A DNA stretch of 63,745 nucleotides, the filler included, from Folioceros fuciformis (lineage: Eukaryota), in the NCBI GenBank assembly GCA_049999805.1. It is 20 parts of 20 records of this genome, joined end to end, with 100 filler letters (N's around TTAATTAATTAA, not from the genome) between each part and the next. Parts side by side here need not be neighbours in the genome. Positions count along the whole stretch, not along the records: positions 7,868 to 14,890 come from JBNGIO010003155.1; 19 more parts are not named here. One strand, given 5' to 3'. The position numbers and the translations under genes were made by a program. Of the stretch, positions 1 to 62,518 are shown piece after piece (the stretch's first letter is position 1; the number at the start of each line of letters is the position of its first letter). The notes below the pieces were generated by a model. The model was not told the DNA's origin. It saw only the letters and a program-made list of their open reading frames with translations, and searched no databases.

Positions 1-862
1 CTTCTTCAATCTACACTCGGGCATTCCAACCAGCATCCCTTGGACCGGTGCAGAAACCAAGTCAGAGCGTGACTTTCTAATTCTTGAAAATTATCGGCGT
101 AACAAAGGCCGTGATAATTTATATTATAGACCTGCTACAATTGGCACTACTCTCCCATGCTGCAATTGTGGACGTCTGTTTAAAAAGGCTCCATGCTCAA
201 ATAAGCCATTTGTTAAGAGGCCAACTTCTGCACCGTCACCATGTACTGAGCCTGCAAGCACATCTGCAATTGATCCTTCACATTCTGAATCAGAGGTACA
301 AGTTCTAGAAGGTACTCTGAATGCCGTTGTTCAGCGACAAGAGACATTCTCTAAACGTTTGGATTGCGCAGATTTTAAAATTCATAAAATTATTTCTCTA
401 TTTTCATTTGAAATTAGTAAAATCTCTAGACAATTACAGATTTTAAACATGATCCTGCGGCCCTTTGATGAGGGGCGATCAGATTGAACTAACATTTGTG
501 ATCTTTTCTAGTGTAGGCATCATTGCATTCAGATGCCTTGTGAATTCTCTGGCCTTTTTGCTTCCGCTGACGTTTCATAGGCAGTTATTAACCGCGTCAC
601 CTGACTCCAATCGTGCCCTAGAAAAGAAGTCAGTAGTTTAAGTTAGACTTTTTCTGCTGAAAGTTCAATCAAACCCTAAACATGCTTTCTCAACCTTAAC
701 TGCCTTTATCAGCCTTATTTTTGTATGTCTACAAGAGACCTGTTGAATTTCCCCTTGTCTCCTTACCTTCGTAGTCAACGTGAGTTGGGTAGTCCTTCCT
801 CTAGCCCACCATCTCTTCTTTCTCCACTTATACCCCCTGCATAGCATCAACAAATAGTCAGT

Positions 863-3800
863 ATGTCTACAGCTCCATCATTTACAACAGATTTGAAAGG
901 CCAAGACAGGTTTAACGGCACCAAGTTCGAAGTATGGAGAGTTCGAATGCAGACTACCTTGCGTGCACGAGGAGTGTGGACTGTTGTTGACGGTAGCTAT
1001 AAGGAGCCTTTGCTCCCTGCTACTGGAACGGCATCTACAAGTGGAGCCCCACAAGTCACACAGGCTGATTTAGACAAATGGAACACAATGAATGAGATTG
1101 CAGTTGCCATTTTGGTTACTGGCCTTGACGAAGTCTTGATTCCAGATGTGGAATATCTTACAAAGGCACACTAGATTTGGAATCAGCTTGTCAACACATA
1201 TGCTGTTAAGACAATGATGACTAAATGTACAGTTCGGCATGAATTTTATACCTTGAAAATGCGCGAAGGGGATAGTGTGGCTGCCCACACTAGCAAGTTT
1301 CAACAACTTCGATCTCGACTTGCTCAACTGAATTCAACTATTTCAGAGGAGGACGCTGTGGCTCACCTTTTGCTCACACTTCCTCCATCATATCAGACTT
1401 TTGTATCCCTACAAAATGGTCCTCTGGCCACTGCTGGTCAGACTACTTGTACTGGTCAGGCTGGCCAATATTCCTTGGAAACTGTGATTGCTGCACTTTA
1501 CCAAGAGGAGCAGAGCCGACTTCGAATTACTTCAAGTGGCTCCAACAAGTTGCGCACTAACAGAGTCCTCTACACTTCACGACAGCGTGGAGGCTTTGGA
1601 AGGGGGAATGGCAGAGGAGGTGGACGACCCGCTCTTTGGCCACAAACCTCCACTCTTGGTACATCTTCTGTAAAGAAACCAGGCAATTGTAATTGGTGCA
1701 ATGTGCCAGGGCATTGGGAGAGAGACTGCCGCAAAAAGAAAGCTGGCGAGCCCCGTCGTCTCAAACCGGAAGTTAATTCAGTAGCTAAGGAAAGACCTCA
1801 ATATGACAATGGCAAAGCAGTGGTGAAGATTCTCACCATCTGTTTGTCTTCCTCATCGAGTGATCCTTGCAGCTGGTTCCTGGATTCTGGTGCGACAACA
1901 CATATCTGTAAAGATAAACAGCTATTTAGCAATTTTAAAGCACTCGCAGATTCCACACAATCTGTCCTGCAGGGAGATGAGCAACGATCAACAAGTTTAC
2001 CTGTTCTGGGCTACGGTACTTGTCAATTTTTTATGACTGATAATTCAGTTCTAAATGTGCTAGGCATTCTGTATGTTCCTGGTATGGCCAAAAATCTTTT
2101 GTCAATAAGGCTTCTAGCAATTCACCATAATCTGGAGTTTCGTTTTCATGGCACCACATGTGAAGTTTTCAGACGTACCTCTAGTGAGCAGTGTATTGGC
2201 CGTGGTGTTCCTGATTCGGAGCTATATCGTTTGGATGCGATTTGTGAGTCTTCCTCTGCAGCACCAATCATCACTTCTACTACTCCAGCGGATCTACCTG
2301 CCAGTGAACAGGCCAAGTTATGGCATGCCCGCCTCGGACATGTAAATAAAAACTCTCTCATCAAGATGTCTACACAAGATTGTTATGTGGAACCTCTACC
2401 TTCCTGCTTCAAACATTAACCTATCTGTGAAGCTTGTCTGTTGGCTAAACAAAAGGAGAAGCCTTTTCCAAAACATGCTTACAGAACTTCAGGGCTGTTA
2501 GATCTTGTGCATGCCGACATCTCTGGTAAACTGCAAGTACAATCTTTAGGAGGAGCCCTATATTATCTTACAATAATAGATGATTTCAAAGACAGTCTGG
2601 CTGCTTACTCAAATGTTTACGTTCAGATAATGGAACTGAATTTTGTAACAATACTTTTGATGCCTTTCTTAAGGATCATGGTGTGCTACGCCAACTTACC
2701 GTTTCTTATACTCCAGAGCAGAATGGGGTTGCAGAGAGAAAGAATCAAACCCTCATGGGGATGACCCGCAGTATGCTTAGCTGGGCATCCCTCCCTGCAG
2801 AGTATTGGGCAGAGGCTCTCACCACAGCTACTTACATTCTTAGCCGCCTCATTACGACTTCACTTCAAGATAAGACACCTTTTGAGATGTTCTGGGGTCG
2901 CAAGCCTAGCATCTTACACCTTCCAGTGTTTGGTTCACCTGCATACGCTTACATTCCACTTGAGAAGCGTCAGAAACTTGACAATAGATCACGAGCTTTG
3001 ATCTTTGTAGGCTATGGGGATGAAGCTAAGGCTTATAAGTTAATTGACCCCTCTGATCTTACCCCTGTCCTTGCACGAAGTGTTGTTTTTAAAGAGCTGT
3101 TGCATTCTGCTTCTCCAAATGTTGGTGTGCATCCTTCCTCCGATTCTGATTCTTCTGATGATGACTTTTCAGTTACGGATGTCTTCGCCACACCTCCTAC
3201 TACCTTCCCTGGAGCAACTGATGTGGTCGAGCCACCTTCTGTAGAGCCACCAGATCCTCCAAACCGTGTTGATCTCCCTGACCCCATCAATGATCATGCA
3301 TCAGCTGAGGGTACTTCAATTCCAGATCAGAATCCTGTTCCCTTGGAGCTTTCCACACATCATACTAATTGAGAGGAGGACTTACCACCTATCGAGGCAG
3401 TACCCCCTTCCCGTTACAATTTGAGAGCACGAATTCCTCAGGCATAGTGGAAGAAACCCCCTTATAAATCTATCGATTTTCGCAACAGTTCTGCTCATAC
3501 AGCAATTCCAGGCAATGTTCCTATACATCTAGACCCTACCTCTATGGATGAAGCTTACTCTGGACCCGATGCCCATCACTGGCAAGCTGCAGTAGAGGAG
3601 GAATATCAATCTATTATTAAGAACAATGCTTGGATACTTACAGACTTGCCCGAAGGGCGTAAACCAGTCAGCTGCAAATGGGTGTTTAAAACCAAGCTAA
3701 ATGCCGATGGTGAAATTGCTCGCTACAAGGCTCGGCTTTGTGCACGTGGATTCAGCCAAGTTGCAGGTCTTGACTACCAAGAAACTTTCTCTCCTGTAGT

Positions 3801-7767: not shown

Positions 7768-7867
7768 NNNNNNNNNNNNNNNNNNNNNNNNNNNNNNNNN
7801 NNNNNNNNNNNTTAATTAATTAANNNNNNNNNNNNNNNNNNNNNNNNNNNNNNNNNNNNNNNNNNNN
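7768..7867. other. Artificial contig linker (first of 19)
   Basis: 44 N + TTAATTAATTAA (stops in all six frames) + 44 N. The same 100-bp linker starts at 14891, 19460, 21409, 27686, 29318, 33239, 34890, 37322, 38966, 42341, 43975, 45133, 48800, 50894, 52147, 57797, 59528 and 62419. Confidence 0.98.
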
Positions 7868-9118
7868 CTGGACGAGTGGTTCCTCCCTTGCCTCTGGTGG
7901 TTTAGGAGTGTTGTTACGTTCTCTCCTCCTTCTCTTCTCTTCCTTCTTCATCCTCTCCCGATAACGACGTTCAGAATGAGTGGTGACCCTTGCCACCATG
8001 ACTTCTTCACCATCGCTAGCTTCGCCTGAATATCCCTCCTCCACAATGCCAGAAAATGCTTGAGAGTCAATCAAAGGCTCCTCCTCGGCCTCCACCGACA
8101 ACACAGGTGCGCTTGTCACCGGAGCTGCTGTCTCCACCGCACGAGGAAGTCCCTCTTGCGGTGCGTCCATGATCCTCACTCCAGATCTAGGCAGCGCAGG
8201 CCTAGGGATGCCCGAACACCTTGGATCCCCAGCCCTGTGCCCTGGATCCTTACACACCTGACAAAACGGCACAAATCCAAGTTGCCTACGTGGCTCTGTG
8301 CACTCGTTAGCATAGTGTCCCGGCAAGCCACAATTAAAACAACAACCTGCTGCCACCACTTGTGGACGCTGGGACGGATCTGGCCTCCAATGGCTTGGAG
8401 ATACCGGACGAGGAACATACCTCATTCCAGGTGGTCCTGGTGGTTGGAAAGATGGCCGAATGGACTGTGGTGGTCGAGGAGCAGTCTCAGCCTGTACCCG
8501 ATAGGAGTCATCCACGTACCAATAGTCTCTTGGTAGGTAGGTGTCCACTTGGTTGACGGCGTGGCGGGGAGCCCTAGTGCACTCTTGGTGGGTGTGTCTT
8601 GATTGGTGACAGATAGAACAGTACACCAGCTGCCGACCCGGTGAAGGTGACCTCCTTGGTGCTTGGTTGCGTACTGCCTTCACCTCCAGCTCGGCCAGCC
8701 TCCTCGTCAATGCCTCAACCTGACTGGTCAGTCCTCCACCACTTGAGGACGGTTCGCCTCTCTCCATCCTATAGGATCCTTTGCCTCTCTTGTCCTTCTC
8801 AGCTCGACGATCCTCATCCTCTTCGCGCCTCTTGCGTGCTTTCTCCAGATCCTTCCTCATCCTCTTCTCATAAGCCTTATCGGACTCCTCATCGGTGTAA
8901 GGATCCGACACAAGGCTGTCATAATCCGAATCAGAGTGAGACGGTGACCTCGACCTTGAAGAGGAAGATGGGCTGTGATGCCTTGACCTCCTATGATGCC
9001 CATACTTCCGGTTCTGCTTCCTCTTCTCTCTGCTCAACTCCGAAAGCTCAAAATCTTCAGCAGCCTTCAAAGCCTCCTGCAAAGTGGTCACACCTCTTGT
9101 GTAGTAGGTTGCCATCCT
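7868..9118 (-). mobile_element. Ty3/gypsy gag C-terminal part with three zinc knuckles
   Basis: CSICHQSRHTHQEC, CFNCGLPGHYANEC, CQVCKDPGHRAGDPRC. Homologous to 26189-27685, which is followed by a gypsy-type protease. Confidence 0.8.
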
Positions 9119-9485
9119 ATAGTAAACCCTAAACCCTACATGACAAAACCTTGTAATATGGCAGGTATCACATAATTCACGTGTTATCGGATTCCATGTA
9201 AAGTCGTAAGCGTTTGAGCTATACCTCATATCAGGTGACCCTATTCCTCAAACTTATCACCTATCGATATCTATTTGCATTTTTCAGAAATGGTGGCGAA
9301 ATAGAACACCAGTGAACCAGCGCGGAACAAGCGGGAGTGCGCCGGTAGACCAGCGCACTCTTTAGTAAAGTGCGCCAGTTGACCAGCACACACTGCCAAA
9401 GGCACATGTATGTCAAGTGGAAAATGAAACTTGCATGGCGCTACATACAAAAATTATCATACCAGTTTGTACTTAACACTTTTAT

Positions 9486-10214
9486 TTAAATGTCTAACAA
9501 GTTTTCATTATTTTCAGGCGATAGTGTATCCTGGTCGCGATTGAGGACGTATTGGTTTCTGCGAATGAGAGTCCTCGTTCGGGAGGGAAGCTGTTTTTGG
9601 CATGTCAAGTCAAATCCATATGCTAGAATAAAAGTGTCTTCAATGAATAATGTATCTATATGCTTCCAAAGTCTTCTGCTTGACCTGCGTTTGCGACCGC
9701 CACGTAACCCTCTTGGTGGAGCTTCATGTGGTAAAATCATCTCTTCTTTGTAACAACCCTCAAAAGCATCTGAACATTTGGTTACGCACCAGTGCACTTT
9801 GACATATGGTTTTTCACATGTAATATTGGCCTCTAAGACTTTGGCAATCTAAAATGGCCTATTGTCTTCGTCAGTCTTGCAAGGGACTGCAATCATATGC
9901 CCTTTTTCTATTTTGGTTATATCCCCGTTCAAACTTTCGCGGTTGTCATTGAGGTCCGTCTCCCTATGATATGCCCCCACATACATGTTTCTTCTGGGAA
10001 TCTCGCGGATGCATGGGTTGTGAACAACGATTTTTTCTGGTACAGTTATAGGTGCATTCAATAATTTTGCCGCCTCCCGATTATACCACCGCCAAGGAGA
10101 ATCAAGGTCTTTGTCTACACCGGAGCATATAGAATGCACAATAGCCTCTTGCTCTGCCCACCACAAGTTCTCACTTGGTCCTAAGTGTTGACGTAATCGC
10201 ATCTCCTGCGCCCC
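9486..10214 (-). pseudogene. Uncharacterised protein C-terminus (RPF[W]IAKV...VHW motif), interrupted by LTR insertion
   Basis: ORFs 9849-10202 and 9486-9797 are in the same frame, separated by a single TAG at a likely Trp position. The frame is cut at 10214/10215 by the LTR end. Confidence 0.5.
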
Positions 10215-11188
10215 TGTAGCGCAACATGTTCCTCTCTCCGATTTACACTCCTCAACTCAACTCTTAACTCACTCACAGCTCACACACAATCGCACCATAC
10301 TTTTAGAAACACAGCCACTTCCTTCCCCTGTCGCCACCCTCGCGACCCGCGATTACGCATAGCTCTCACAACAGCGATCACTCGAAACCGCCCCTCACTT
10401 CACACGATCGACACACTTACTTACATACTCTCATTTCTTAGTCCACTGGCAACTCTCGTCACCTTTCTCCGACAGGCCCCTCGAGGGCCTTCTCTTCTCT
10501 CTGAAGTTTGGAGGAATGACGGGTCACCGGAGGCTAAGGGAACGGGTTTCCACTTCCACTCCAAACTCGAGGATTCGGCCTCCGACACTCTCACCACTCC
10601 ACATGATCGTCTCAAGGATAGCTGGGGAGCTCGTCTCCCACTCGGTGGGGTCTCTCCCCCCTATTCGTCCTCGGAGCCCGGTCACGGAGCATCCACCACC
10701 TGCACCCACACCCTTAGAACACTACGTGCGCTTGCTTGCCTGGACCTCCCGTCCAGCAACGGCCATCGCTAGGGTTCCACAAGGTTGGACTGTTGGGCTG
10801 GTTTTTGCTGTTTTTTCCGAGGCCCCAAACTGGCCTCTTATACACGGTAGTGGCGGTCCTTCCGCCATAAAGTCTGTCAGGGGTCGGTCAACGCTCTTAA
10901 ATTCTGAGCGACTTAGGTCCAAGCAAAACCAATCTAAAAAAAACTAGTTTAGACTGCAATTACTATCGCCTCTCTCTTTGTCGTTGGCACCTCCTTTCTG
11001 GCCGTCATGCTCCTTTCCCCACTGGTTTGCCTTTGGCCCTCCTACCCCACCGCTGGTCAGGTAGGTCCTCCCACAAGACCTCCACCTCACTGTTGCTGCT
11101 GCTGGTCCTTATTGGCGGCGGAGTAGGTGGGTCCCGTCGTAGGGAAGCCCTCTCCTCCCCCCGTCGCCGATTGCTGAGGATGAGAACG

Positions 11189-11422
11189 TGTTGGATAATA
11201 TGTGCTAATTAATAATTGCGGCTAGTTATTATAGTTTAAAATAATTTAACTTACCCGTTCGCTAGGGTTACACCGCTTAGCAAAGGGGTGTACCGTTTCG
11301 TAAGTAGCTGTAGTTTAAGTTGGGCTTATTTATGAAGAATACATACACATGACAAGCATGAATGTAATGTAATATAGCCAATTAATGTAAATATGTTTAT
11401 GCATATTTTCTTTAATATGAAA
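11189..11422 (+). mobile_element. 234-bp AT-rich solo-LTR-like insertion with 5-bp TSD GAACG
   Basis: GAACG at 11184-11188 and 11423-11427; starts TGTTGG. Absent from the homologous site in copy 2 (~52588-52611). Confidence 0.8.
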
Positions 11423-11895
11423 GAACGGGCTCCCGCTCAACCCACTGTTGCGCCCTTCTCCTCCGTCAATTCCTCTAGGACTGCCTCGGAATAGCAATGA
11501 GGTAGTCCCCATACCCGCCAGCGGTAGTAGTAGATGCCCCTGCGGGTCCTCAGTTGCAGGCTGTAGTCCCACGTCCCTCCTGTGCCCATGCGTACATACA
11601 AAAACAACTTCAGAACTCGAGCTCCTTCCACATAGAGGCCTGGCACATAGGAGGCGTCCTCCTCATACTACAGCATAACCTGACCCTCTGTCATAAAGGA
11701 GGTGCTTACCCCTTCCTCCCTTGGGCTACCTCGGGATGCTTGTCCCCTACTCTCCTAGGGTACCTGAGGGTCCTCCATCCCTCCGGCTCAGACCGCATGG
11801 TGCGAGTCGCCCTCTTGGAACGCCTAGGCACAGGCGCCTCCGCCATCCCTCATTCGGCTACCGGGATCGTGGCTTCGACTATCTCGGGTAACACA

Positions 11896-12045
11896 AGACT
11901 ACCGGTAGCCCCTTCGACTACCGGTGTGGCCATTCGACTACTGGTAGCCCTGTCGGCTACCGGCACTATTGCTCGGCTACCGGTAGCCCCGTCGGCTATC
12001 GGTACTGGGACTCGACTACCGGTAGCTCCTTCGGCTACCGGCGTC
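11896..12045 (-). repeat. 39-bp (13-aa, PVxEGATGSxxxx) coding tandem repeat, ~4 units
   Basis: Recurrent CTACCGGTAG core; related repeats at ~53065-53185 and ~61180-61290. Confidence 0.75.
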
Positions 12046-14027
12046 GCCGTCCGGCTATTGCGCCCAGCCTTACCCTTTCCCTTTACTCGCTCCCTGGCCT
12101 CATCTTGCTCCCGTTTGTACCTATCGGCCAGCTTCTGGACTTGTTCCATCGCAGCCATCTCCTGCTCCTGAGCCTTAGCCATTTCCTATTGTATTTCCAG
12201 ATTTGTCTCATAGGCTTCCCTCACCTGAGCTAGGAGCGACCCCCGTTGCTCCTTCAGTTGCCTTGGCCTAGCGCGCCTCTTCCTCTGCTTGTGCCTTGCC
12301 CTCACTCAGGACCCGGTGCTTCTCTTCTAGGAGCCGCCGTGCCGTCTCAGACTCCGCCAGCTGTCTCCAGGCTTCGGCCTCCTTTCCTCTTGCCTCTGCC
12401 TCCTTACTTTGGGCCTCGGCCTCCCTCTTCCGCCTGCATGCTCAACCAGGTCAGCGCCCTGGCCACCTGGTCCAGCATGTCCACTTCTGCCTGCACCATG
12501 GCTAGTCCTAGCAGATCCACCTCCTGCGAGGCAGATAACCAAGAGGGGAATGGCTCCCTTGCCTGCAGCCTATCCACCTGAGGAATTTTTCTAAAAACAT
12601 CTTCCCATTCTGGGAAGACTTCCTGCTTCGGAATGTGCCCTAATTCACTCATAACCTCTGGAGGGGCCTCTTCCATTTCTGGCACCTGCTCTTGAGGTGC
12701 TTTTGTCTCCTCCTCGTTCTGTTCCTGCTCTGCTAGTTCTTGGTCTGCTAGCCCTTGAGCAGCTTTTTACACCTGCTCAGCATGCACCAGGGCTATCTCC
12801 TGTGGCACCGACCCGCTTTCCCTCCTGGCAATTTGGCCGCTGGCTTGTCTCCTCTTGGCATGAGTCTTCTTCCCTGCCACTGCCTTCCTCTTGTGCCTGG
12901 TGGGGGTCTCCTACTCTGAGCTGTCCACGCCGCCCGACTCCCTGTTGCTGGAGTCGGCTTCCATTGGCTCAGCGGGCTTCCACTTCACATCACTTATTGG
13001 TCTCCACATATGTAGTGAGGCGAGCACCTCCAATTCAGACACGAGGTTAGCATAACAATAGATATGGATTAGAAAGGGAGAGATCATCGAAGGCCGAGGA
13101 GAGGACAGGGCCAGATTCTACCTCTCCTCGTCCATCCTGGCATACAGGATTTTCCCCCAATCCACCTTGCTTCCCTTGACAACTTCGTGCATAAACAAGA
13201 GCATTTGATCAGACAGATAATCTTGCTTGCGAACCTGTAGGAAGCTTAGGAACCACCTAGCCAAACCTATCAGCTGGGGGTTGGCCATATCGCGGATTAG
13301 CCAGCCATTTGATTCCTTCTTGGTGCCAAGTTTGAACAACACCTCGGCGTCTGGTGTGCCACCACGCCTCTTTAGGGACTCCAGCACCAGTCCCCCTCCT
13401 CCTGCTGATCGCGGCCATACACCTATCTTACCAGCTCCAGGTTCCATTCCTTGGGCCTGCCACGGATGCCCTCCTGCACTTGCGGTCGCCTAGCGTCCTC
13501 CTTCCACTCCGTGCCACCGCCTTAGTGCTTGCTCTATTCCTGACCATCGTCGCACTCCGCGGCTACTCTCGCTTTCGCTCCAACTCGCGGAACCTCCTGC
13601 CGGATTACTGACCAGGTTCTCCCTGACTCTCTCTAGGGTTTTATATTGCCGTTCCCGTTCCACTACCGCCGGTTGCCCTTCCATGACAATCGCCCAACCG
13701 GCTACCGTCGCCCAGTCACCATGCCCCGTTTTTTTTGCCTAAGTCCACCTAAGCCCCTCTCCCCCACTACCTATTTCCTTATTTTTCAAGGGGGGGGTGC
13801 ATATATAGACACCTGAGTGTCCTCGAACCACCAAGGGCCAAGGACACTCTCGCTCACACTTTTCCTTGGACCTGTCAAAACACCAAGGGCCAAGCAGACT
13901 TTGGGTATAAATACCCAAGTCTTATTCACATACTAAGTCGATCCACTCGCATTCTCACAAAAAAAAAATCACAACCTGTTCATTTAGTCCTTTAAAATGG
14001 GAGTCACGAAAGTTTTTTTCCTCTACA

Positions 14028-14040
14028 TACTCCCCTTCTC
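14028..14040 (-). promoter_or_regulatory. Polypurine tract (PPT)
   Basis: GAGAAGGGGAGTA immediately before the TG of the LTR. Confidence 0.8.
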
Positions 14041-14062
14041 ATTTGTTGGCATCCTTGCCAAC

Positions 14063-14552
14063 CTACACATAATATTTCTTCACTCGCCAACCATTAAGTC
14101 TGGTTGGCAGTGATTGTCTGTCCATCTGTTGCAGCTAAATGGATCCATTGTCAAATACCTCAATTACCTTCTAGGGTCCCATCCACCTTAGATGCAACTT
14201 CCCCGGGAAGTGCATATACCTACTGTCATACAGCAGGGCCAGATCTCCGGGTACCACCCACTCCTGCTTTCTTAGCTTGTGGTCATGCCTCTCCTTTCTC
14301 TTGGCCTACATCTCCTGCATCATCTCTAGTGCCTGCTCCCTATCTTCAGTGTGCCTCACGAAACTGACCGGACGCTCCAGCTGACTTTCTTCCACTAGCA
14401 TTCGGTTCTCTCTGGATGTGCAGGGTCTGGACTTCAAACTCCACAGGCATCACCAGGTGATGCCCATAGGTGAGATAATAGGGCGTCCTCTGTGTGGTGA
14501 TTCTCTCCACGGTCCTACACGCCCATAATGCTGAGTGGAGCTTAAGGTCCCA
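14063..14552 (-). mobile_element. Gypsy integrase C-terminus (Athila-like GPY/F region), with stops
   Basis: Manual translation gives WDLKLHSALWACRT...LLYDSRYMHFPGKLHLRWMGP*KVIEVFDNGSI*...NGWRVKKYYV*. No chromodomain follows. Confidence 0.85.
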
Positions 14553-14787
14553 TGTGAACCTCCAAAGTTTGGGGTAGTAGTTTGTTTTGGTTGAAAAAGG
14601 GTTAATAGTGGTATGGTTTGGTTTTCTCTTTCAACTTATTTTCCCTAATTTTCCTTGATTTTCTGGTCATTTTTCCTATTTTTCTTTGTGTTAATTAGGT
14701 TAATTGACCAGGAAATAGTTGGTTTGGTTATAAGAGTGGGTATAGGTTTGGTCCCAGATCTGGGAAAGTTTAGGTCCGGTACCGGGC
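14553..14787 (+). mobile_element. LTR 5' part (TGTGAACCTCC family) inserted in the integrase
   Basis: The same terminus occurs in reverse orientation ending at 42491 and 45539, each time against a different flank. Confidence 0.8.
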
Positions 14788-14890
14788 CATAGGGTTATTA
14801 AAGCCCAATGTGCTTAGGCTAATGTGATTAGTCTAATTAGGCTAATGTGATTAGTCTAATTAGGCTAATGTAATTAGTCTAAGATTAGTG
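14788..14890 (+). repeat. Nested LTR start (family of 21813-22105) with 23-bp x3 tandem repeat (14814-14882)
   Basis: AGGGTTATTAAAGCCCA...TAGTCTAAGATTAGTG is shared with 21816-21870. Unit: TTAGGCTAATGTGATTAGTCTAA. Confidence 0.75.
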
Positions 14891-15577
14891 NNNNNNNNNN
14901 NNNNNNNNNNNNNNNNNNNNNNNNNNNNNNNNNNTTAATTAATTAANNNNNNNNNNNNNNNNNNNNNNNNNNNNNNNNNNNNNNNNNNNNAGTTTTGCAA
15001 GTTTCTCTGCTAAGATTTTTGTTGTGTGGGAGGCAAGAGGGTCAAAATGTGGCATAGGGTGCTACAAGACTTGCTGCGGGAGGTGAGCAAGGTGAGATCT
15101 GCTGTGATCTACTTATGCATATACACGTGAAGCTGACTGACTGTTAGGTGCAGGGCTTCAAGCTGGGACTCTATGCAATTCAACTGAATTCTGAGATAAT
15201 CAGGTGTAGTTGGTACTTTTGAAGAAAAGGGTGCTGTATAGGCGCATCCATGCGAGTGAGGAATTGGTCTGATTGGCGTGGCGGTAGTGCGAACGCCGGC
15301 AGGCGTGCTCGAGGGCGTGGTGCTTGGTCTCATCCGTTGTCGGCGGCGCTGTTCATAGCGGGTCAATTTCTGGGTGCAGTCCGCGCAAGGTCTTCCGATT
15401 GGAGATGGAGCGCGGGCAGTGGGTGCATGAAACGCTGGGACGCGCCACCTACGCATGATGCTTTAGCTAGTGTCGGTAGCCGTCAAAGCCCGTGGCTTGC
15501 TGCTGCTTCATGCTGGTGGATTGCGCGGCGCCAGTGGTAGGAGGCGGAAGCGAAACTGAAGGGTAGAGAGCCCTGGT

Positions 15578-21812: not shown

Positions 21813-22105
21813 TGTAGGGTTATTAAAGCCCATTGTGCCTAGACTAATGTGTTTAGTCTAAGATTAGTGTCTAGTTAAGTATCATTAGTTTAGATTAGCT
21901 TAAGCTAATCTCTAGGAAGCTTCTTGTGCAGCTTCCTGTGGGCTTCTTGTGAAGCTTCCTAGGGAGCTCTTCTAGAGGGTATAAATACCCCCTTGAGCTC
22001 CCTTGTATGTGGACTCCATTGTGAGAGTGTGACCTCTCTTTCTCCTCTCCTCCTTGCCTCCTCCTCTCCTCTCCTTTACCATGTAGCTCCTAGAGCGTTC
22101 CTTCA
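21813..22105 (+). mobile_element. 5' LTR (293 bp)
   Basis: TGTAGGG...CTTCA, TATAAATA at 21980, followed by the PBS. Confidence 0.85.
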
Positions 22106-26348: not shown

Positions 26349-27685
26349 GACTCAGCAGAAGCCCCCGTGCCCCTTGCCTCGGGCTCCCCAGGCGCTCCGG
26401 CGTCTTCCATTGGCGCGCTCTCACCCTCCCGCAGACTGCTACGACTCTTGGGTGGCCAAGGGGAATCTTCCCTGACCTTTCGCTTCTTCTTCTCCCCTTT
26501 TTCGCGACGCCTCTCCCGGTACTGCAGCTCCCACGCTCTTCTCCCAGAGCGCGTGGTGACTCTTGCCACGTCCAATCCTTCCCCATCACTGACCTCGCCA
26601 ACGTAGCCTTCTTCCACGATTCTCGAGTAGACATGGGTATCGTCCACCGTGTCAAACTCTGCCGCAACCTGCATAACAGGAGTGGAAGTCACGGTGATAG
26701 CCGTGTCGGTGTTCGCGAAAGATCCGTCTGCCGCAGAGTTAGAAGCTTTGTCCCCTGATCGAGATGGGACAACACGTGGGATGCCGGAACAGCGTGGATC
26801 ACCCGCTTTGTGGCCAAGTTCCTTGCACACTTGACAAAACGGAACGTACCCCATCTGCCGCCTTGGCTCGAGACATTCATGGGCATAATGACCAGGTGCA
26901 CCACAATTATAGTAGCACCCGGCTAGAGCTGACGTCGGTCGTTGAGATGAGTCAGGCCTCCAATGGCCTGGCGTAATCGGGCGCAGCCCATACTGCATGG
27001 TTGGGGGTGCCATCGGTTGATAGGTGGCTCTCATCGATTGGGGTGGACGGGCCGCTGTGACCGCCTACACTTGATAGGTCTCATCGACATACCAATAATC
27101 TCCAGGCACATATGCGCCCACCTGGTTGACCACATGTCTTGGTGCCTTGGGGCACTCACGGTTGGTGTGTCCTGCATGATGACATATGGAACAATACACC
27201 GACTACCTAGCCGGAGAGGGGGATCGTCGTGGAGCCTGATTTTTCACCGCCTTGACCTCCAACTCCGTCAACCGCCTGGTCAGGGCCTCCAACTGATCCG
27301 TGAGGACAACGCTGCCCGCGGAGGGACCTCCGCGCTCCATCCTATTAGAACTCTTGTTCTTGCTCTCCTTCTCGGCTGCTCTCTCAAAATCCTCCTGACG
27401 CTTCCTTTTTGCGCGTTCGAGATCCTTCCTCAACCGGCGTTGGTAAACGGGGTCGGACTCGTCGTCCATCGAGTTGCCTGAGATGGTGCTTCCCTTTTCC
27501 GTGTCTGACCTGGAAGAAGACATAGAGGGACGCGCTGGCGAAGAAGAACTGGAGTACCTCGCTTCCTTGACCTTCCTCCGCTCCTTCCTCTTCTTGCGCT
27601 TCCCATACTCAGCTAACTCATAATCTTCTGCCGCCTTCAGACATTCTTGCAGAGTGGTGGTCCCCAGCCGGCAGTGGGTGTCCAT
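25631..27685 (-). mobile_element. Ty3/gypsy gag (three knuckles, partly degenerate) + aspartic protease
   Basis: Homologous to 7868-9118; protease VPLDTGSGVNFM...VLLGR. Confidence 0.88.
26293..26359. other. Probable sequencing-adapter artefact (inverted TCTGCTGAGTCGA flanking A41)
   Basis: 13-bp perfect inverted repeat around a poly-A run. It matches, from memory, the start of the MGI stLFR adapter TCTGCTGAGTCGAGAAC.... Confidence 0.75.
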
Positions 27686-30169: not shown

Positions 30170-32447
30170 TCAGTCAGTTCGTGCCCTCATTCTCAGCAAA
30201 AGTTTCCAACACTTGTTTCCGTTGAGGTTGTTTGTATGCATGTGCCACTAATTGTCTCACCTTTTGTTGAGTTTGCTCCATAATGCAGGCTATCCCAAAA
30301 GCTAAATCTGAATGCTCAAATGCAATATCACATACTTCAGCACATGCCATTTTAATAAAATCCAACCGTTTTTCTTTTGCCATCTCCAATTCTATCTTAC
30401 ATTCTTGGTGCCAGCAAGGGGTTACTAGGCAACACAATGTGTGGAGCTTCTTGATCCTTCATCCAAAAAGCCATACCCAAGTTGTTGGTATCACTACTTT
30501 AAGCAACATACGCTCCATCTGTTCTTCCATTTTGCCTAGCTGCTGCTACACCATCTTTGTATATGCCAAGGAGTTGTTGAACTTTCACCACATGCTTGCA
30601 GATGAAACCCTAAACCCCATTAGACATGAACATGTAGCCCAAGGAGAGTAAACATGTTCAATCACATACCACAAGTTAAGGGTCGATGAAGACAAACAAT
30701 GTGCAGCAACATTTTTGGCATGCGGTAAAATAATTGAGCTAATAGGAATAGTTTCTGCACCCTTCATAGCGGTTTCCTCTAAAGCCTTGGGCTTCTTGGT
30801 ATGCCTGTATCCCCCTTCTTTCGTGAAGTGCTAGTACCAATAATGTCGGGCAACCACATTCACTAATTGGTGTAGTAACCAGTTTAGTCTACGGCTAGGC
30901 AAACTTGACTTGCTAAATGCTGCACGTTCTTTTATAAATCTATGGAATCCTTCCACAGCTGAAGTTGTATGTTGCCCTGCATGAGGCAACATTCTAGCAT
31001 TACACAACCACATATCTATAGTCTCTCCCCATTGGACCTTCATATATCTCACACAGTCTCCTTCACTTGTTCCCCACTTGTCACAAAAATTGTGTAGCAT
31101 ACTTCTTCTTATGGAAATACACTCTGAAGATGTGCTTGCCCCTGTGACATACATAATATCCCCTAGCTCTGCCCACATTGAAATTCGATTACTTTTTGAG
31201 TGCGATTTCTTCAATAAATTCCGTCTCCACGCTTTCCGCACATGCCACAAGCATAATAATATAGGCATATTATGATTCCACACTGACCGAATAGCGGAAA
31301 TCTCTGCCTGACATTCATCAACAAGGAATGAACTAGGTGTCCAATCCTTGTTGATCTTTTCAACCTTCTTCCGTAAAGCTGAAAGCCACCTGACAAGTGA
31401 CTCAGCAGTAGCATCTTTTGTAATAGCCCATGCTACTGGAACACCGTTCAAGTAATGGTCAAAAACCATCACAGTGAATAAGTGGTAGCGATACCTGTTC
31501 AACCCAAAAGTTGCATGCATAGCTAGCACATTACCATTCCCATAAAGCAACATGCAATATAACATCAAAGGAGTTTGAATACCCAAAGCGAAAGGTTGAT
31601 TCTCGCTTGATTGGTGGAAGACTATAGACGCATTTTGCTCCAACCACAGGGCCACTGATGTGGCATCATCTGGGGCTAGCTTCCATTCACCAACTTCAAC
31701 TTGTGTAAGTATATTGAGAACATCATATCTTTGCATATAATCATCTCTTACTAGCTCATATACCTGTGTCTGATTGTTGATTTGAGCATACAATGCATCT
31801 TGATGCTGACGCATTATTTCATCAATAGGAACTTTGCAATATAGGCAATGCCTAATCCAATCCTTCTTTTCTTGTGAAAGCCATGCTGCTCTGACATCAC
31901 GGGGTAAACCTTCGTACCCAGGCCCATGACATATAGCATTTGAAAGGTCAATATTCCTATGTTCAAAAAGACCAATCTCAGCAACCGTAGGCCACACAAG
32001 AAGTTTCTTCACCCTAAAATTTGCTTGGCAACCATGCTTCACACTCTCTCCGCGAAGGACCTTACACTTAGCTGTATTAGCACCACGTGACACTCCCACC
32101 TCTTTTTGACGAAAGTCTTCCGGGCCGTAAGAACACTAATACCTGCAAGCTAGCCTCATAATGTTAATGCCTCCCTAAGTAATAAAACAATTTGCATACT
32201 TCAAACCTTCTCACCTAACATATAATACAGCTGTATGCACTATCGATATTGCAGGGTGAGGTAAACTCCCCAGTCCCTTAGAATCCTTCTTGTAGAAGTT
32301 CGTAGGATGGGAACTTATAGCACTCATTCCCCCAATAAAGTCTCTCACTCTAGAAAAGAGTATGTGAGCCACCTTCACATGTTTTTGCTGCCCTGGTGCC
32401 TTAAATATGAGAAGGTTAAATAACCCTAATTTAGGAAGCTGCACCAC
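30170..32447 (-). pseudogene. MULE transposase-like / SWIM zinc-finger protein with intron 32143-32214
   Basis: Spliced RY[W]CSYGPEDFR, GCQANFRVK, CHGP, M[D>H]ATFG, GVPVAWAIT, FLVD, LCLWHVRKAW, T-SAVEGFH, and frameshifted SWIM CSC...CKH near 30595-30635. Stops at 32136 and 30831. Confidence 0.85.
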
Positions 32448-42440: not shown

Positions 42441-42491
42441 AACCCTTTTTCAACCAAAACAAACTACTACCCCAAACTTTGGAGGTTCACA
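42441..42491 (-). mobile_element. LTR terminus (TGTGAACCTCC family)
   Basis: Reverse complement of the sequence starting at 14553. Confidence 0.8.
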
Positions 42492-42493
42492 GG

Positions 42494-43974
42494 GATGTTG
42501 AAGAGCTGCAGCAGTAACACCCCCTTCCACGGGGTGGGGCAGAACTACGCAGTTAGAAGCCAAAACAGGGATCAAGTTTAAACACCGGACACAGCACTAG
42601 GCCTCCAAGTAGCCCGCCCTCCTCTTCTAGGAGGACTCGCAGCCAGCACCCTTGCTGCTGCTCTTTATTCAAATCACGAGTCAACAAGAACATACAGAGC
42701 TGGAGGACTAGAGAGAACTCTCCATCTTTGCCTAAGCTAGGAGTTTAGCTCTCCCTTCTCTTGGCCTCCTCCCACAGCTCCTTCACAGCACCTTTCATGT
42801 GCTCTCACAGCTCAAGCAACACATGCTCTCAAGGCATAGCCCCAAGCACCCAGTGCTCTCAAGGCTTTGAGGAGATACTCATCTCAACTCCACTGTACTG
42901 AACTTCCCTTAGCCCTTAGCTAGGTCCCCTTTTATACACAAGCTCAAGTCACTAACTTAGCAACTACTTACTTAAGCACTTACTTAAGCCTTAAGCTATT
43001 ATTCACTACCACACACTTTTTCCTAGGGCTGCATGCTTCTCATGCTCTCTTAGTAACCTGCTCTGCTAAACATGCCTTTGCATGGAGCTTACTTGCTTGG
43101 CACTCAAACCAACGTTGTTACTGCAGCCGCGAATTTCAATGGCTTTGCAACAGCTTGTGCTGGTTCTGGGTGGGAGTATTAGTCTGTCCCCATCGCCACC
43201 CTCCTCCCAAATGCACCTACCTCACCCACGCCGGCAACGCACCCGCCTTCCAACCTTTCCAGATGTGGTGCTTGGGGATTTCTTCGATGGACTACCACGG
43301 CCGGTGGAGAAGGAGGAAAGAAAGCGGTGGAGGCAGGTGCGGCAGAAGGTGTTGATTGCTGTTGGCAGATGTGCCTCCCTCAGCTGACTGAAATGGTTGC
43401 CTCTTGACATCTACGAGGAGGGGCGAGAAGATGAGGTGGAAGCCCTGTTCGGAGGTTTGAAATCGATTGCCAACTACTCGGCCTTAGAAACGTTGGATTT
43501 GGAAGGGCGCAGCGGTGTGGGGGGGAGTGAAGCTGGATGTGCTGCCCTGGTGGGCTTCCTCCGCTTCAATCCCAGCATCCGTCATTTGCTATTGGAGCGT
43601 ACAGGCCTGAAGCCAGACGGGCTGGGCCAGTTGGTGCGGGGGCTGGAAGTGAATCCCCACCGCCCTCTCCGCTCTCTGAATCTGTCAGAGAACGAGCTGG
43701 GAGCTGGTGAAGGCGATGCAGCAGGATGTGAGGGCGGGGCTTTGCAGGTAGCGAACCTGCTTCAGGCCACCGTGTGCCCCAACCTGCAAAAGCTGGACAT
43801 CAGGAATATCGGGTTGGATTTGGAAGGTGCAGACATGATAGGTCGGGCTTTGGCGAAGAACTCGTCGGTGCGGTCGTTGAAAGTGGGAGGGAAGAATGAC
43901 AAAGGGGTAGCGTTACTTCTTCGGACGGGACTGGCGAGGGAGAGGGAGAGGGAGATGGAGAGTTGCCCCACCCA
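42494..43974 (+). pseudogene. Ribonuclease-inhibitor-type LRR protein (TORNADO1-like N-terminus), interrupted
   Basis: LETLDL, LRSLNLSENELG, LQKLDIRNIGL, LAKNSSVRSL. Removing the solo LTR restores DVEELQPRISM... in frame. One TGA at 43385. Confidence 0.7.
42513..43122 (-). mobile_element. 610-bp solo LTR with AGT...ACT termini and 5-bp TSD GCAGC
   Basis: AGTAACA...TGTTACT inverted ends; GCAGC at 42508-42512 and 43123-43127; minus-strand TATAAAA near 42930 and AATAAA near 42665. Confidence 0.75.
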
Positions 43975-45232: not shown

Positions 45233-45539
45233 ACACTGACATACCCAGATACCCGTTCCTATGTTCAAACCATTATTTTTATTATTTAATATTATTATAT
45301 TATTTAATCATTAATATTATATATCTTTAATTAATATTAAACTAATCACCAGACCTAGACTAAACCAAACCAACTATTTCTTGGTCAATTAACCTAATTA
45401 GCACAAAGAAAAATAGGAAAAATGACCAGAAAATAAAGGAAAATTAAGGAAAATAAGTTGAAAAAGAAAACCAAACCATACCACTATTAACCCTTTTCCA
45501 ACCAAAACAAACTACTACCCCAAACTTTGGAGGTTCACA
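45233..45539 (-). mobile_element. LTR 5' part (TGTGAACCTCC family)
   Basis: About 200 bp are near-identical to the reverse complement of 14553-14730. Confidence 0.85.
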
Positions 45540-45633
45540 AGTGACAAGATTGCAAGTCTGGAAAGGACTGTCTGAGATGCAGTGTGGAGTCGCCAAGGGT
45601 GGAGGTCCCATTGTTGGAGGAACTTCTTTTTTT

Positions 45634-52246: not shown

Positions 52247-55200
52247 TGGCCTCTTATACACGGTGGTGGTGGTCTTTCCGCTATAAAGTCTGTCAGGGGT
52301 CAGTTGGCGCTCTTAAATTCCAAGCGGCTCAGGTCCAAGTAAAAGCATTCCAAAAAGAACACTATCCTTGCCTGCAATTACTATCGCTTCTCTCCACGCT
52401 GCTGGTGCCTTCCCCCCGGTCTGCGTGCGCCTCCTCTCACTGGTCCCCCTCTTGCTCTCCTACCCCTCCGCTGATTGGGCAGATCTTCCCACATGATCTC
52501 TACGTCACTACTGCTGCTGGACCTTTCTAGCGGTGGCACAAGTGTGCCCTGCCGTTGAGAACCATTGTTCTTCCTCCTCCTCTGGTTACTGAGGATGGCA
52601 ACAGGCTCCCGTTCTACCCATCGTTGGGCCTCTTCTTCCGTCAGCTCCTCCAGGACTGCCTCTGCGTAGCAATGGGGCAGGCCTGTCATCCACCAACTGT
52701 AGCGGTAGAGACCCTTGCAAGTCCTCAGATGCAGGCCGTAGCCCCGCATCCCTCCTGTGCCCATACGTACATACAGAAATAGTTTAAGAACTTTGGCCCC
52801 TTCCACATAAAGACCTGGCATATAGGAAGCCTCCTCCTCATATTGCAGCACAACCCAACCTTCTGTCATAAAGGAGGTGCTTACCCCTTCCTCCCTTGGA
52901 CTACCGTGGGTTGTTTGCTCCCCATCTTTTTGGGGTACTTGAAGGTCCTTCATCCGTCCAGCTGTTGCTTCCTCCGGCTCTGTCCTTCTGGTGCGGATCA
53001 ATCTCCTGGAGCGCCTAAGCTCAGGCACCTTCGTTGTTTCTTCCTTGGTTCCTAGGGCTGGTCCCTCGGCTACTCTGGGCTTAGCCGGGCTACCGGTAGC
53101 CCTGGCTACTACTCGGCTACCGGTAGTCTGCTCGACTACCGGTTCCCCTGCTCGACTACTGGTAGCCCCTTTAACTACCGGTGTCGACGTTTGACTTGGG
53201 CGCCCAACCTTACCCTTCCCCTTCACTCTCTCTTTGGCTTCGTCTCGCTCCCGCTTGTACCTATCAGTCAGCTTCTGGGCCTGTTCCACAGCGGCTACCT
53301 CCAGCACCTGCGCCTTGGCCATCTCCTGTTGTATCTCCAGGTTAGTCTCATGGGCCTCCCTCACCTGAGCTAGTAGGATCCCCTGTTGCTCTCTTCACGC
53401 TTGGACCTCGGCCTTTGCCTGGCGTGCCTCTTCCTCAGCCTGTGCCCTCTCCTTATCTAGGACTTGCTGTCTCTCCTCCAACAGTTGCCGCGCCGACTCT
53501 GATTGTGCCAGTAGCCTCCAGGCTTCAGCCTCCTGCTGGCATGCCTCTGCTTCCTTCCCTCGGACCTCGGCTTCCCGTTCCGCCTGCACACTCAGCCAGG
53601 TCAGTGCCCTAGCAGCCTGGTCCAGGAGATCTGCTTGGGCCTGTACGATCGCGGCAATCAGCCCTGGCAGATCCACCTCCTGCTTTTCTCCAACAGTCAT
53701 TCCTCTCGCCGTAATCTGCTTGCCCAGAAACTCCCTCAGCTTCTCCAGGTCTCCCACTTGCAGCCTGTCCTTCTGAGGAATGCTCCTGAAGATTTCCTCC
53801 CATCCTGAAAAAGCTCCTTGCGCCGAAACGTGCCCTAATTTGCTCTCATGCCTGGGAGGAATTAACTCGGCGGCTAACGTCTGCTCCTGAGACTCCTCCA
53901 ACCCTACTTCATCCTGCCCCTGCTCCTCTAGTCCTTGATCCGTGACTCCCTGGTCAGCGAGCTCCTGTTCTACCTCCTGTTCCTGTACAGCCCGCTCCTC
54001 TGTTTGACCTTCGATTTACTCCAGGGCTGTCTCCGGTGTCTCCGGCCTACTCCCTCCTCTCGTGCTCTGCCCGCTGACCCATCTCCTCTTGGCAAGGGTC
54101 TTCCTTTGAGCTTATGTTCTCTTCTTAGGCTTGACGGGAACCTCCCCCTCCGAGCTGTCCCCACTCCCCGACACCCAACTGCTGGAGTCAGCCTTCACTG
54201 GCTCAGCAGGCTTCCATTTTCCATCCCTGATTGGCCTCCACATGTGCAGTGAAGCCAACACCTCCAGTTCCGACACCAGGTTAGCATAACTATAAATATG
54301 CACTAGAAACGGGGAAATCATCAAGGGCTGAGGAGAGGGCAGGGTCAGGTTCTGCCTCTCCTCGTCCATCCTGGCATACAGAATTTTTCCCCATCAATCC
54401 TAGTCCCCTTCACTACCTCATGCACAAACAGGAGCATCTGGTCAAACAGATAATCCCGTTTGCAAACTTGGAGAAAACTAAGAAAACCACCTGGCCAGAC
54501 CCATCAGCTGCGGGCTCGCCATGTCACAAACCAACCATCCGTTAGCCTCCTTCTTCGTGCCTGGTTTGAGCAGTCCTTCAGCGTCTCTTGTACCTCCCCG
54601 TTTCCTCAGGGACTCTAGCACCAGTCCTCCCTCTTCTCGCTGGTCACGGCCATACACCCTCCTCACTAGCTCCAGGTTCCACCCCTGCGGTCTGCCTCTG
54701 ATCCCCTTCTCACGGACAGGTTCGTTCAACCTCAGGGTGCACTCCCTGACCAACTGTGGCGCTGCATGGTTCCACTTCTGGGTCATGAAACCCATACCCA
54801 ATTCATCCACCAGCCCTCCTGCTCTGACCCTCCAGTGCTCCATGTCGGGCCACAGAAGTAGGTCGATTCGGGGAACAGGAGGTTCCCCCTCCTGCTCGGG
54901 TACTGTCACTCCAGGCAGTAGTTCAAGGCGCGACCTCATCCTACCAACCTCCTCCTCTTGCTCCGGCTTCTGCGGTCCCTCCTCTCTCTTGATGAGCACT
55001 CGCTGCTTGCCTCGGCCCGTCCTGTTGCCTCAGCGTCTGCTTCCTTTCCAGCCGCCTTCACGCTCCCGGGTTACTACCCTTCATGTTTCGAATACTAACT
55101 TAATTCCCCTCCAGACTGCCCTTTAGGGTTTTTATACTAGCCGTTTTCTTCTCTCACTACTACTAGTTGGACTACCACCAGTCGCCCTTTTCGCGACGGT

Positions 55201-55553
55201 CGCCCCGCTGGCCACCGTCGCCCAGTCACCTCAACCCAACCTTTTTCCTAAATCCACAACTAGCTAGCCCCCTTCCCTACTCATTTCTATTCCTTATTTT
55301 TCAAGGGGGGGGGGGCATATATAACCACCTAAGTGTCCCCGAACCACCAAGGCCCAAGGGCAACCTTACTCACTCACTTCCAAATCGTGGTCTTCGATAT
55401 CCCAAACACCCAAAGACCAAGGCCATTTTTGAGTATGAATCCCCCTATCTTATTCACATACTAAGCCGATTCGCTCGTTCCTTCACACAAAAAATCGCAG
55501 CCTGCTCATTCTGTCACTCAAAATGGGAGTGTCGAAAGTTTTTTTCCTCTACA
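52247..55553 (-). mobile_element. ORF-bearing giant LTR, copy 2 (5' or solo LTR, truncated by contig end)
   Basis: Starts TGTAGAGGAAAAAAAC at 55553, as copy 1 does, but abuts unrelated gag with no PPT. ORF pieces 54478-54999, 54112-54369, 53395-53901 and 52381-53364. Confidence 0.85.
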
Positions 55554-62418: not shown

Positions 62419-62518
62419 NNNNNNNNNNNNNNNNNNNNNNNNNNNNNNNNNNNNNNNNNNNNTTAATTAATTAANNNNNNNNNNNNNNNNNNNNNNNNNN
62501 NNNNNNNNNNNNNNNNNN

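Follow-up and report, generated by a model that had tools for sequence, protein, structure and literature searches.

Are the long terminal repeats (LTRs) of plant retrotransposons always non-coding, or can one of them carry a gene of its own? According to the portions of two reviews that treat the subject, LTRs are non-coding modules supplying promoter and terminator, and the accessory open reading frames (ORFs) of plant elements lie in the internal region (PMC7264820, PMC6431247). The question is raised here by a 63,745-base window (the whole stretch of DNA that was analysed) from Folioceros fuciformis, in which the interval from 14027 down to 10215 on the minus strand had been predicted to be a giant gypsy LTR that itself encodes a protein. 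It appears rather probable, with considerable room left for doubt, that this interval is the 3' LTR, at least 3.5 kb long, of an old and broken non-chromovirus Ty3/gypsy element, and that an accessory gene of about 790-880 codons lies within its U3 region on the pol strand. If the end at 10215 is correct, the LTR would be about 3.8 kb long.

The window consists of 20 unplaced contigs of 1.1-7.8 kb each, with 19 artificial spacers between them, and the sequence that begins at 14027, here called the unit, occurs on three of these contigs. The reference copy lies on the minus strand of the contig at 7868-14890 (7,023 bp). Two further copies were found by blastn. Copy 2 (52247-55553, minus strand, on the contig at 52247-57796) runs from a TGTAG at 55553 down to the contig end and reaches the equivalent of 11182 in the reference. 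Copy 3 fills the whole contig at 59628-62418 on the plus strand, i.e., reversed with respect to the reference; it extends from the interior of the region encoding the N-terminal domain of the ORF product to 425 bp beyond the ORF stop (61994) and reaches the equivalent of 10533. Identity to the reference is 71-76% for these two copies, which share 74% with each other over 2.5 kb. Because the copies lie on separate contigs, they are three copies without physical linkage, and the low end of copy 2 and both ends of copy 3 are simply contig ends. The third copy named in the original prediction is indeed homologous; its limits do not mark limits of the element.

The beginning of the unit is marked by a series of features on the minus strand. 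The first of these is the C-terminal tail of a Ty3/gypsy integrase (14063-14447), which is frameshifted, so that its translation passes over three frames (...PGDLALLYDSRYMHFPGKLHLRWMGP, stop, KVIEVFDNGSI, stop, LQQMDRQSLPTRLNGWRVKKYYV, stop), with a stop at the GP[Y/F] position. The translation ends at a TAG at 14065-14063, about 30 codons past GP[stop]KV, and contains no chromodomain as judged by eye; an integrase that ends so soon after GPY/F fits a non-chromovirus Ty3/gypsy element of the Athila/Tat type. Reverse transcriptase (RT) is absent from the contig at 7868-14890, and the integrase core is replaced from 14448 onwards by a high-copy repeat. The integrase stop is separated by 22 nt from the polypurine tract (PPT) GAGAAGGGGAG (14030-14040, minus strand), an 11-nt purine run that ends 2 nt (TA) before the TGTAG at 14023-14027, the 5' terminus of the unit and the probable start of U3. 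A purine run of at least 11 nt ending 0-4 nt upstream is found at only 1.6% of the positions on the reference contig, even on a strand as purine-rich as this one (23 such runs in 7,023 nt, several of them past the ORF). The 22-nt gap contains a 7-bp hairpin, GUUGGCA-AGGA-UGCCAAC (14045-14062, minus strand; -10.1 kcal/mol, z -2.73), the stem of which is preserved in one other copy of the family through a two-sided change from A-U to G-C (sequencing-run contigs, place 14069).

That this terminus is genuine follows from copy 2. Its homology to the reference begins at the same TG, the alignment opening at TGTAGAGGAAAAAAACTTTCG, and the bases upstream are unrelated between the two. There, the unit abuts a second, truncated gypsy element (55554-57796, plus strand, opposite in orientation to copy 2) with a CX2CX4HX4C zinc knuckle, a protease (PR), and an RVT_1 (RT) domain, whose gag frame is open right to 55554 and is severed at that point. 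Since this junction has the look of a nested insertion, TGTAG can be regarded as a true element terminus, and the original prediction was right in reporting a second copy that ends at 55553 against unrelated gag. A further comparison was made with contigs from public sequencing runs of the same organism (X1 and X2, which are one sample) and of a second organism of the same study. In X1 and X2, the match to the reference ends at 14062 or 14069 and then passes into a diverged but homologous integrase tail; these diverged tails indicate that the junction between integrase and unit is a property of the family rather than a one-off event. Two marks of an LTR are therefore present, namely a start directly after a PPT and the same 5' end recurring against unrelated DNA.

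Downstream of the terminus and on the pol strand lies an ORF that is real, though decayed, and about 790-880 codons long, a size in agreement with the 850-900 amino acids originally proposed. In the reference, it occupies 10965-13485 (minus strand, about 760 codons) and contains many stops and frameshifts, and such lesions break it in all three copies. Taken alone, the reference would hardly reveal a gene: its longest stop-free stretch in the sense direction is 123 aa, and the longest ORF on any strand (221 aa) is antisense, compared with 171 +/- 38 in 200 shuffles. Copy 3 is the best preserved over the N-terminal two thirds, with 568 codons and 2 stops in frame 0. In copy 2, stop-free stretches of 183, 93, 206, and 337 aa follow one another along one path; the constrained stretch there covers nt 804-3170 (54750-52384), i.e., 789 codons followed by TAG TAA, and the frame is open upstream to 55029, which would give about 880 codons. 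The ORF starts about 540 nt past the terminus in the reference and about 800 nt past it in copy 2.

Coding constraint is seen in two ways. Between 13475 and 13176, the mismatches that separate the reference from copy 2 and from copy 3 are distributed over the sense-frame codon positions as 23/12/40 (p = 3.5e-4) and 24/11/35 (p = 2e-3), respectively, the third position carrying most of them; this 3-periodicity is absent in the first 300 nt of the unit (p = 0.64). The ratio of nonsynonymous to synonymous substitution (dN/dS), calculated according to Nei and Gojobori on blastp-anchored codons of copies 2 and 3, is 0.01-0.40 in 10 of the 11 true-frame segments, over 714 aligned codons; the remaining segment, a linker of 30 aa, gives 1.66. 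Off-frame high-scoring pairs of at least 28 aa from the same DNA (n = 8) give 0.73-1.17. Both results bear out the earlier claim of a decayed ORF downstream of the PPT on the pol strand. In the reference only, the ORF is interrupted by an AT-rich insertion of about 245 bp (11184-11428), in which the GC skew is reversed; it is absent in copies 2 and 3, and joints across it are found in run contigs (11184 to 11428/11454). This insertion is itself repeated in the organism, since it recurs, with 3 differences, in one run contig, and no clear terminal inverted repeats were found in it.

The protein encoded by this ORF is an orphan. Its helical N-domain is followed by a coiled coil of about 200 residues and by GATGSR-type repeats, and a beta-rich C-domain and a tail rich in Arg and Gly complete it; the GATGSR-type repeats are encoded by a 39/78-bp tandem repeat (11897-12042, minus strand). 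Seven ORF pieces and the read-through proteins gave nothing in Pfam up to E = 10, including families of the plant mobile domain, Transposase_28, and DUF1985 types. Word-indexed protein searches likewise retrieved no relative for P0001 among proteins of 312-994 aa, for the C-terminal part of copy 2 among proteins of 185-590 aa, or for P0003 among longer proteins. A HMMER search of 1.84 billion representatives returned one weak match, P0002, a protein of 244 aa that is 28% identical across the N-domain (E 5.9e-5) and is itself an unnamed singleton with no Pfam family. In a language-model protein atlas, the N-domain came closest to plant hypothetical proteins (0.87), DUF1985 (0.85), and PMD (0.84), all below the 0.9 line, and the C-terminal part had no usable match. 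The N-domain contains a motif that we take to be reminiscent of the PMD/Transposase_28 type, which no profile supports. No relatives of the locus were found in metagenome contigs, searched by protein and by a 21-nt pattern, or in viral contigs.

The AlphaFold model of the N-domain, made like that of the C-terminal part from a shallow alignment, is helical and, with a mean pLDDT of 38.8, useless; that of the C-terminal 337 residues (mean pLDDT 56.0) is confident only for a 58-residue coiled-coil helix, the repeat region being disordered and the beta-rich domain scoring 55-70. There is no membrane segment of the kind expected of an env-like protein (top 19-residue Kyte-Doolittle mean 1.09 in copies 2 and 3). 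The succession of helical, coiled-coil, and beta-rich parts, the Arg-rich tail, and the lack of any membrane segment together faintly suggest an oligomerising, nucleic-acid-binding accessory protein, perhaps a replication or regulatory factor, rather than an env-like one.

How, then, should the position of this gene be understood? In reverse transcription, U3 begins with the base that follows the PPT, and the stretch from there to the 3' end of the RNA is copied into both LTRs. Because copy 2 starts at exactly that base against foreign DNA, the reference follows an integrase and a PPT, and the ORF is found 0.5-0.8 kb further on in both, an ORF within U3 is the simplest reading. The 5' boundary after the PPT, its recurrence at an independent junction, and the downstream position of the ORF together make an ORF in the LTR the most economical interpretation, and to that extent the original prediction is supported in part. 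Plus-strand DNA synthesis would be primed at the PPT 2 nt before TGTAG, and the sequence from the PPT to the RNA 3' end, U3-R, would reach the two ends of every new insertion. The gene would then be present twice per element, and a solo LTR would retain one. We give slightly better than even chances to the wider proposition that a plant Ty3/gypsy family carries its accessory gene in U3, twice per insertion, with a complete gene and its own upstream TATA box in every solo LTR.

Two TATA-like boxes may be relevant to the expression of such an element. The first, TATATATG (13800-13807, minus strand), lies 220 nt into the unit and is conserved in both of the copies that cover the site (counterpart in copy 2 at 55323-55316). 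The second, GTATAAGAGGCC (10832-10843, minus strand), lies about 125 nt past the ORF stop; copy 2 has the same sequence and copy 3 has TACAAG instead, within a block that all three copies conserve. Two routes of expression can be envisaged for the gene: the genomic RNA could carry it in its 3' part, as with a sense accessory ORF located after pol and before the 3' LTR, or the TATATATG box could yield an LTR-internal mRNA. The GTATAAGAGGCC box is a candidate promoter of the genomic RNA, and it would leave about 600 bp for R-U5 if the unit ends at 10215. The description of the unit as a self-contained promoter-plus-gene cassette would draw on one piece of evidence, the TATATATG box of those two copies. 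A scan for bacterial-type promoters and terminators was disregarded as irrelevant to a plant element.

The 3' end of the unit is less sharply drawn than its beginning. In the element order of the original prediction, integrase tail, stop, PPT, and TGTAG at 14027 are all in place on the minus strand; the CTACA end at 10215 (10219-10215) is not secured in the same way, as this 5-mer occurs at 6 sites on the 7,023-bp contig, i.e., at chance level, and copies 2 and 3 stop short of it. The TG start of the unit is thus seen, while the proposed end is one of 6 sites and is reached by no second copy. It lies in a G-rich tail (10215-10532, minus strand) for which there is no comparable copy, and searches within the window by blastn and nhmmer gave no other match to 9121-10560. 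Base composition offers some guidance. The GC content of the unit is 51-55% with a skew of G over C, which peaks at 10215-10452 (+0.5 to +0.6), persists to about 10050-10215, and then declines, a weak change point being placed at about 10054-10144. Summed run-contig depth, which is no measure of copy number, is far lower at 10218-10452 than in the flanking bins. The unit is therefore at least 3.5 kb long (14027-10533), plausibly ending near 10215.

Beyond that point, the contig continues with an AT-richer segment (9121-10214, minus strand, GC 42-44%), which is probably flanking DNA. It holds a 257-codon ORF-like stretch (9486-10256, minus strand) with one internal and one terminal stop, for which neither a Pfam family nor a relative among longer proteins was found; the stretch ends in an AT-rich tail, and a telomere-like GGGTTTAGGGTTTA at 9121-9140 abuts the truncated gag that follows. 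This gag (7868-9120, minus strand) belongs to another repeat family and has a CCHC zinc knuckle. Its copies in the same and in the second organism continue differently past 9117-9120 (loose ends at 9117 in X1 and at 9120 in X3, with record 17 of X3 matching 7868-9120), which shows that it is 5'-truncated flanking DNA. The fragment also encodes a Ser/Arg-rich region. Over 1.25 kb, it shares 97.7% identity with a contig of 5.3 kb from the second organism, and it has a 66% relative at 26778-27435. An LTR end at the gag breakpoint, 9121, was considered as well; it is less likely, as GC drops from 51-55% to 42-44% and the skew stops near 10050-10215.

Several observations weigh against a gene-bearing LTR. 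Besides the undefined 3' end, no element with two copies of the unit, no primer binding site (PBS), no target site duplication (TSD), and no proven solo copy is found among the contigs of the window, copies 2 and 3 being cut by contig ends; the window contains no tRNA genes, which were sought for deriving the PBS. Run-contig depth is similar for the integrase tail and the start of the unit and does not show the 2:1 excess that an LTR should have, a weak point given that depth is no copy number. The reference contig is small and unplaced, and the exact run-contig pieces listed cover only 10118-10600, 12598-12974, and 13154-13391 and hence not 13391-14274. About 325 nt into the unit, the reference has a CA directly followed by TGG, beside a 17-nt block that is conserved in copy 2; this site could be the end of a short LTR and the adjoining PBS, and copy 2 has GA-GG there. 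Finally, extra ORFs upstream of gag-pol are described, in the part of the source that deals with them, for grass gypsy families, namely ORF0 of Retrosat2, RIRE3, and RIRE8 (PMC3485330).

Most of these points converge on the strongest alternative, which we regard as unlikely yet deserving of serious attention. It holds that the LTR is short and comprises only the first 300-500 bp after TGTAG, including the TATATATG promoter, that a PBS comes next, and that the ORF is the first internal gene. The conservation of the TATATATG box 220 nt in, the lack of depth excess over the integrase tail (weakly), the size and unplaced status of the contig, and, mildly, the CA and TGG beside the conserved 17-mer all agree with it, as does the occurrence of 5' extra ORFs in the grass families, whose LTRs are long, and of Ogre ORF1, so far as the sections in question describe them (PMC3485330, PMC6431247). 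However, a contig on which integrase, PPT, and LTR run on into an internal region would require either two tandem elements that share an LTR, a rare arrangement, or a chimeric assembly in which a 3' LTR was joined to a 5' internal region. The reference differs from all other contigs of the family at many sites, and for some of its stretches there are exact contigs, with the lowest depth figures seen, so that a join made by repeat collapse is less likely. Moreover, copy 2, although better preserved, lacks CA-TGG at the candidate site. Past the ORF, one would expect gag, PR, and RT of the same element; instead, neither PR nor RT is found within 750 bp, the gag at 9120-7868 is 5'-truncated and continues differently in its other copies, and the ORF is followed by a block conserved in three copies, with a TATA-like box in two of the three. 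A mini-element of the form LTR-ORF-LTR was also tried and rejected, since the reference contig contains no second copy of the first part of the unit and no internal direct repeat.

It is considerably less probable that the 3.8 kb represent the internal region between pol and the 3' LTR, as in Retand/Tat-type elements, with an ordinary sense ORF, the purine run being incidental or a central PPT and the real PPT and LTR lying further on. Retand does have 2.9-6.6 kb with ORFs in this place, among them sense ORFs without known domains or membrane segments, according to the portion of the paper concerned (PMC11963269), and runs of at least 11 purines are common on this strand, several of the 23 lying past the ORF. 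Nonetheless, an internal region of this kind leaves unexplained why the homology of copy 2 ends right after the purine run and against a severed gag, and no second repeat start is visible past the ORF, nor does the contig contain internal direct repeats.

Still less probable is the possibility that the unit is an independent nested element or a captured host gene (a transduced fragment) that came to lie after the integrase by chance. Such an origin would suit a protein unrelated to gag or pol with one weak outside relative, P0002, but the junction between integrase and unit recurs in run-contig copies with a PPT at it, and three copies with 24-29% difference between them all have the ORF under constraint, which makes it a feature of the family. 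That there is no gene at all, only chance open stretches in G+A-rich sequence, is scarcely credible: the reference has no ORF above chance and no Pfam family is recognised, but the true frames show dN/dS of 0.01-0.40 where the off-frames of the same DNA are near 1, copy 3 offers 568 codons with 2 stops, and the mismatch periodicity together with dN/dS refutes this explanation.

It remains to compare a gene within an LTR with known systems. Coding sequence in or overlapping U3, and hence in both LTRs, exists in retroviruses, as with MMTV sag and HIV nef. These, however, are short ORFs of animal retroviruses with known expression routes and have no sequence relation to the ORF of the unit. Among plant elements, Retrosat2, RIRE3, and RIRE8 are chromoviruses. 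For these families, which live in grass hosts, the relevant part of the source reports LTRs above 3 kb and an ORF0 between the 5' LTR and gag-pol that is orphan and fast-evolving with low Ka/Ks (PMC3485330). The present element resembles them, as far as that description reaches, in its probable LTR of more than 3 kb and in an orphan extra ORF under constraint; it is unlike them in that their LTR ends read TGTCACACCC... against TGTAGAGG here, and in that the integrase here stops about 30 codons past GP[Y/F]. The Ogre elements of dicots have LTRs of 1.9-6.5 kb, and the passages that treat them call the terminal repeats long and noncoding and draw the extra ORFs as internal (PMC6431247). The internal position of those extra ORFs sets Ogre apart from the unit, and the likeness between the two is one of description, drawn from the passages mentioned; there is no RT here to place the lineage.

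Further parallels are offered by ORFs that follow pol. For Retand, Athila, and Bagy2 of plant Ty3/gypsy, accessory ORFs in sense orientation that are placed after pol and before the 3' LTR (aORF-3S) are described in the sections of two papers that concern them (PMC7264820, PMC11963269). In Retand, the region between pol and LTR measures 2.9-6.6 kb and holds TRP28 ORFs in antisense for the most part, along with some domain-free sense ORFs, as stated in the part of the paper that covers it (PMC11963269). Like aORF-3S, as characterised in those sections, the ORF studied here is on the pol strand, directly downstream of integrase, without a known domain, and family-specific. However, aORF-3S precede the PPT and are internal, whereas here the PPT and the element terminus precede the ORF; from env-like ORFs, the present one differs in having no membrane segment. 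If the gene does lie within the LTR, it would be a pol-distal type of accessory ORF that has come to be part of the repeat. A possible origin would be a move of the functional PPT from downstream of such an ORF to just after the integrase; this shift alone would turn an internal gene into LTR sequence, adding about 2.5 kb to the LTR. Phrase searches of the literature, confined to a limited library without supplements, brought up no plant example of an LTR that contains an ORF.

A gene placed in this way would have consequences beyond the single family. Movement of the PPT would be a route to giant LTRs, and the gene dose would be doubled in each element. There would be thousands of gene-bearing solo LTRs, masked as repeats by standard annotation. 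With part of the LTR under selection, dating by LTR identity could not be relied on in such families.

The remaining features of the window can be described briefly. The very high-copy repeat that replaces the integrase core occupies 14448-14890 (no strand assigned) and includes a 23-bp tandem array (14814-14882) at the contig end. It matches 45363-45545 with 95.6% identity and occurs in the window at 42441-42494 and 21815-21861 as well. Run contigs join it (14790) to other places of the unit (11143, 11784), in the manner of a small sequence that is highly mobile or resembles a satellite. The spacers between contigs (7768-7867, 14891-14990, on to 62419-62518) are each 100 bp long and of the form N44-TTAATTAATTAA-N44, with a six-frame stop linker; since they are artificial, inference from neighbourhood across them is void. 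The contigs other than those with the unit carry copia, gypsy, and MULE fragments. One of them encodes a MULE transposase ORF of 434 aa (30831-32135, minus strand), and further contigs hold several copia gag, RT, and integrase ORFs.

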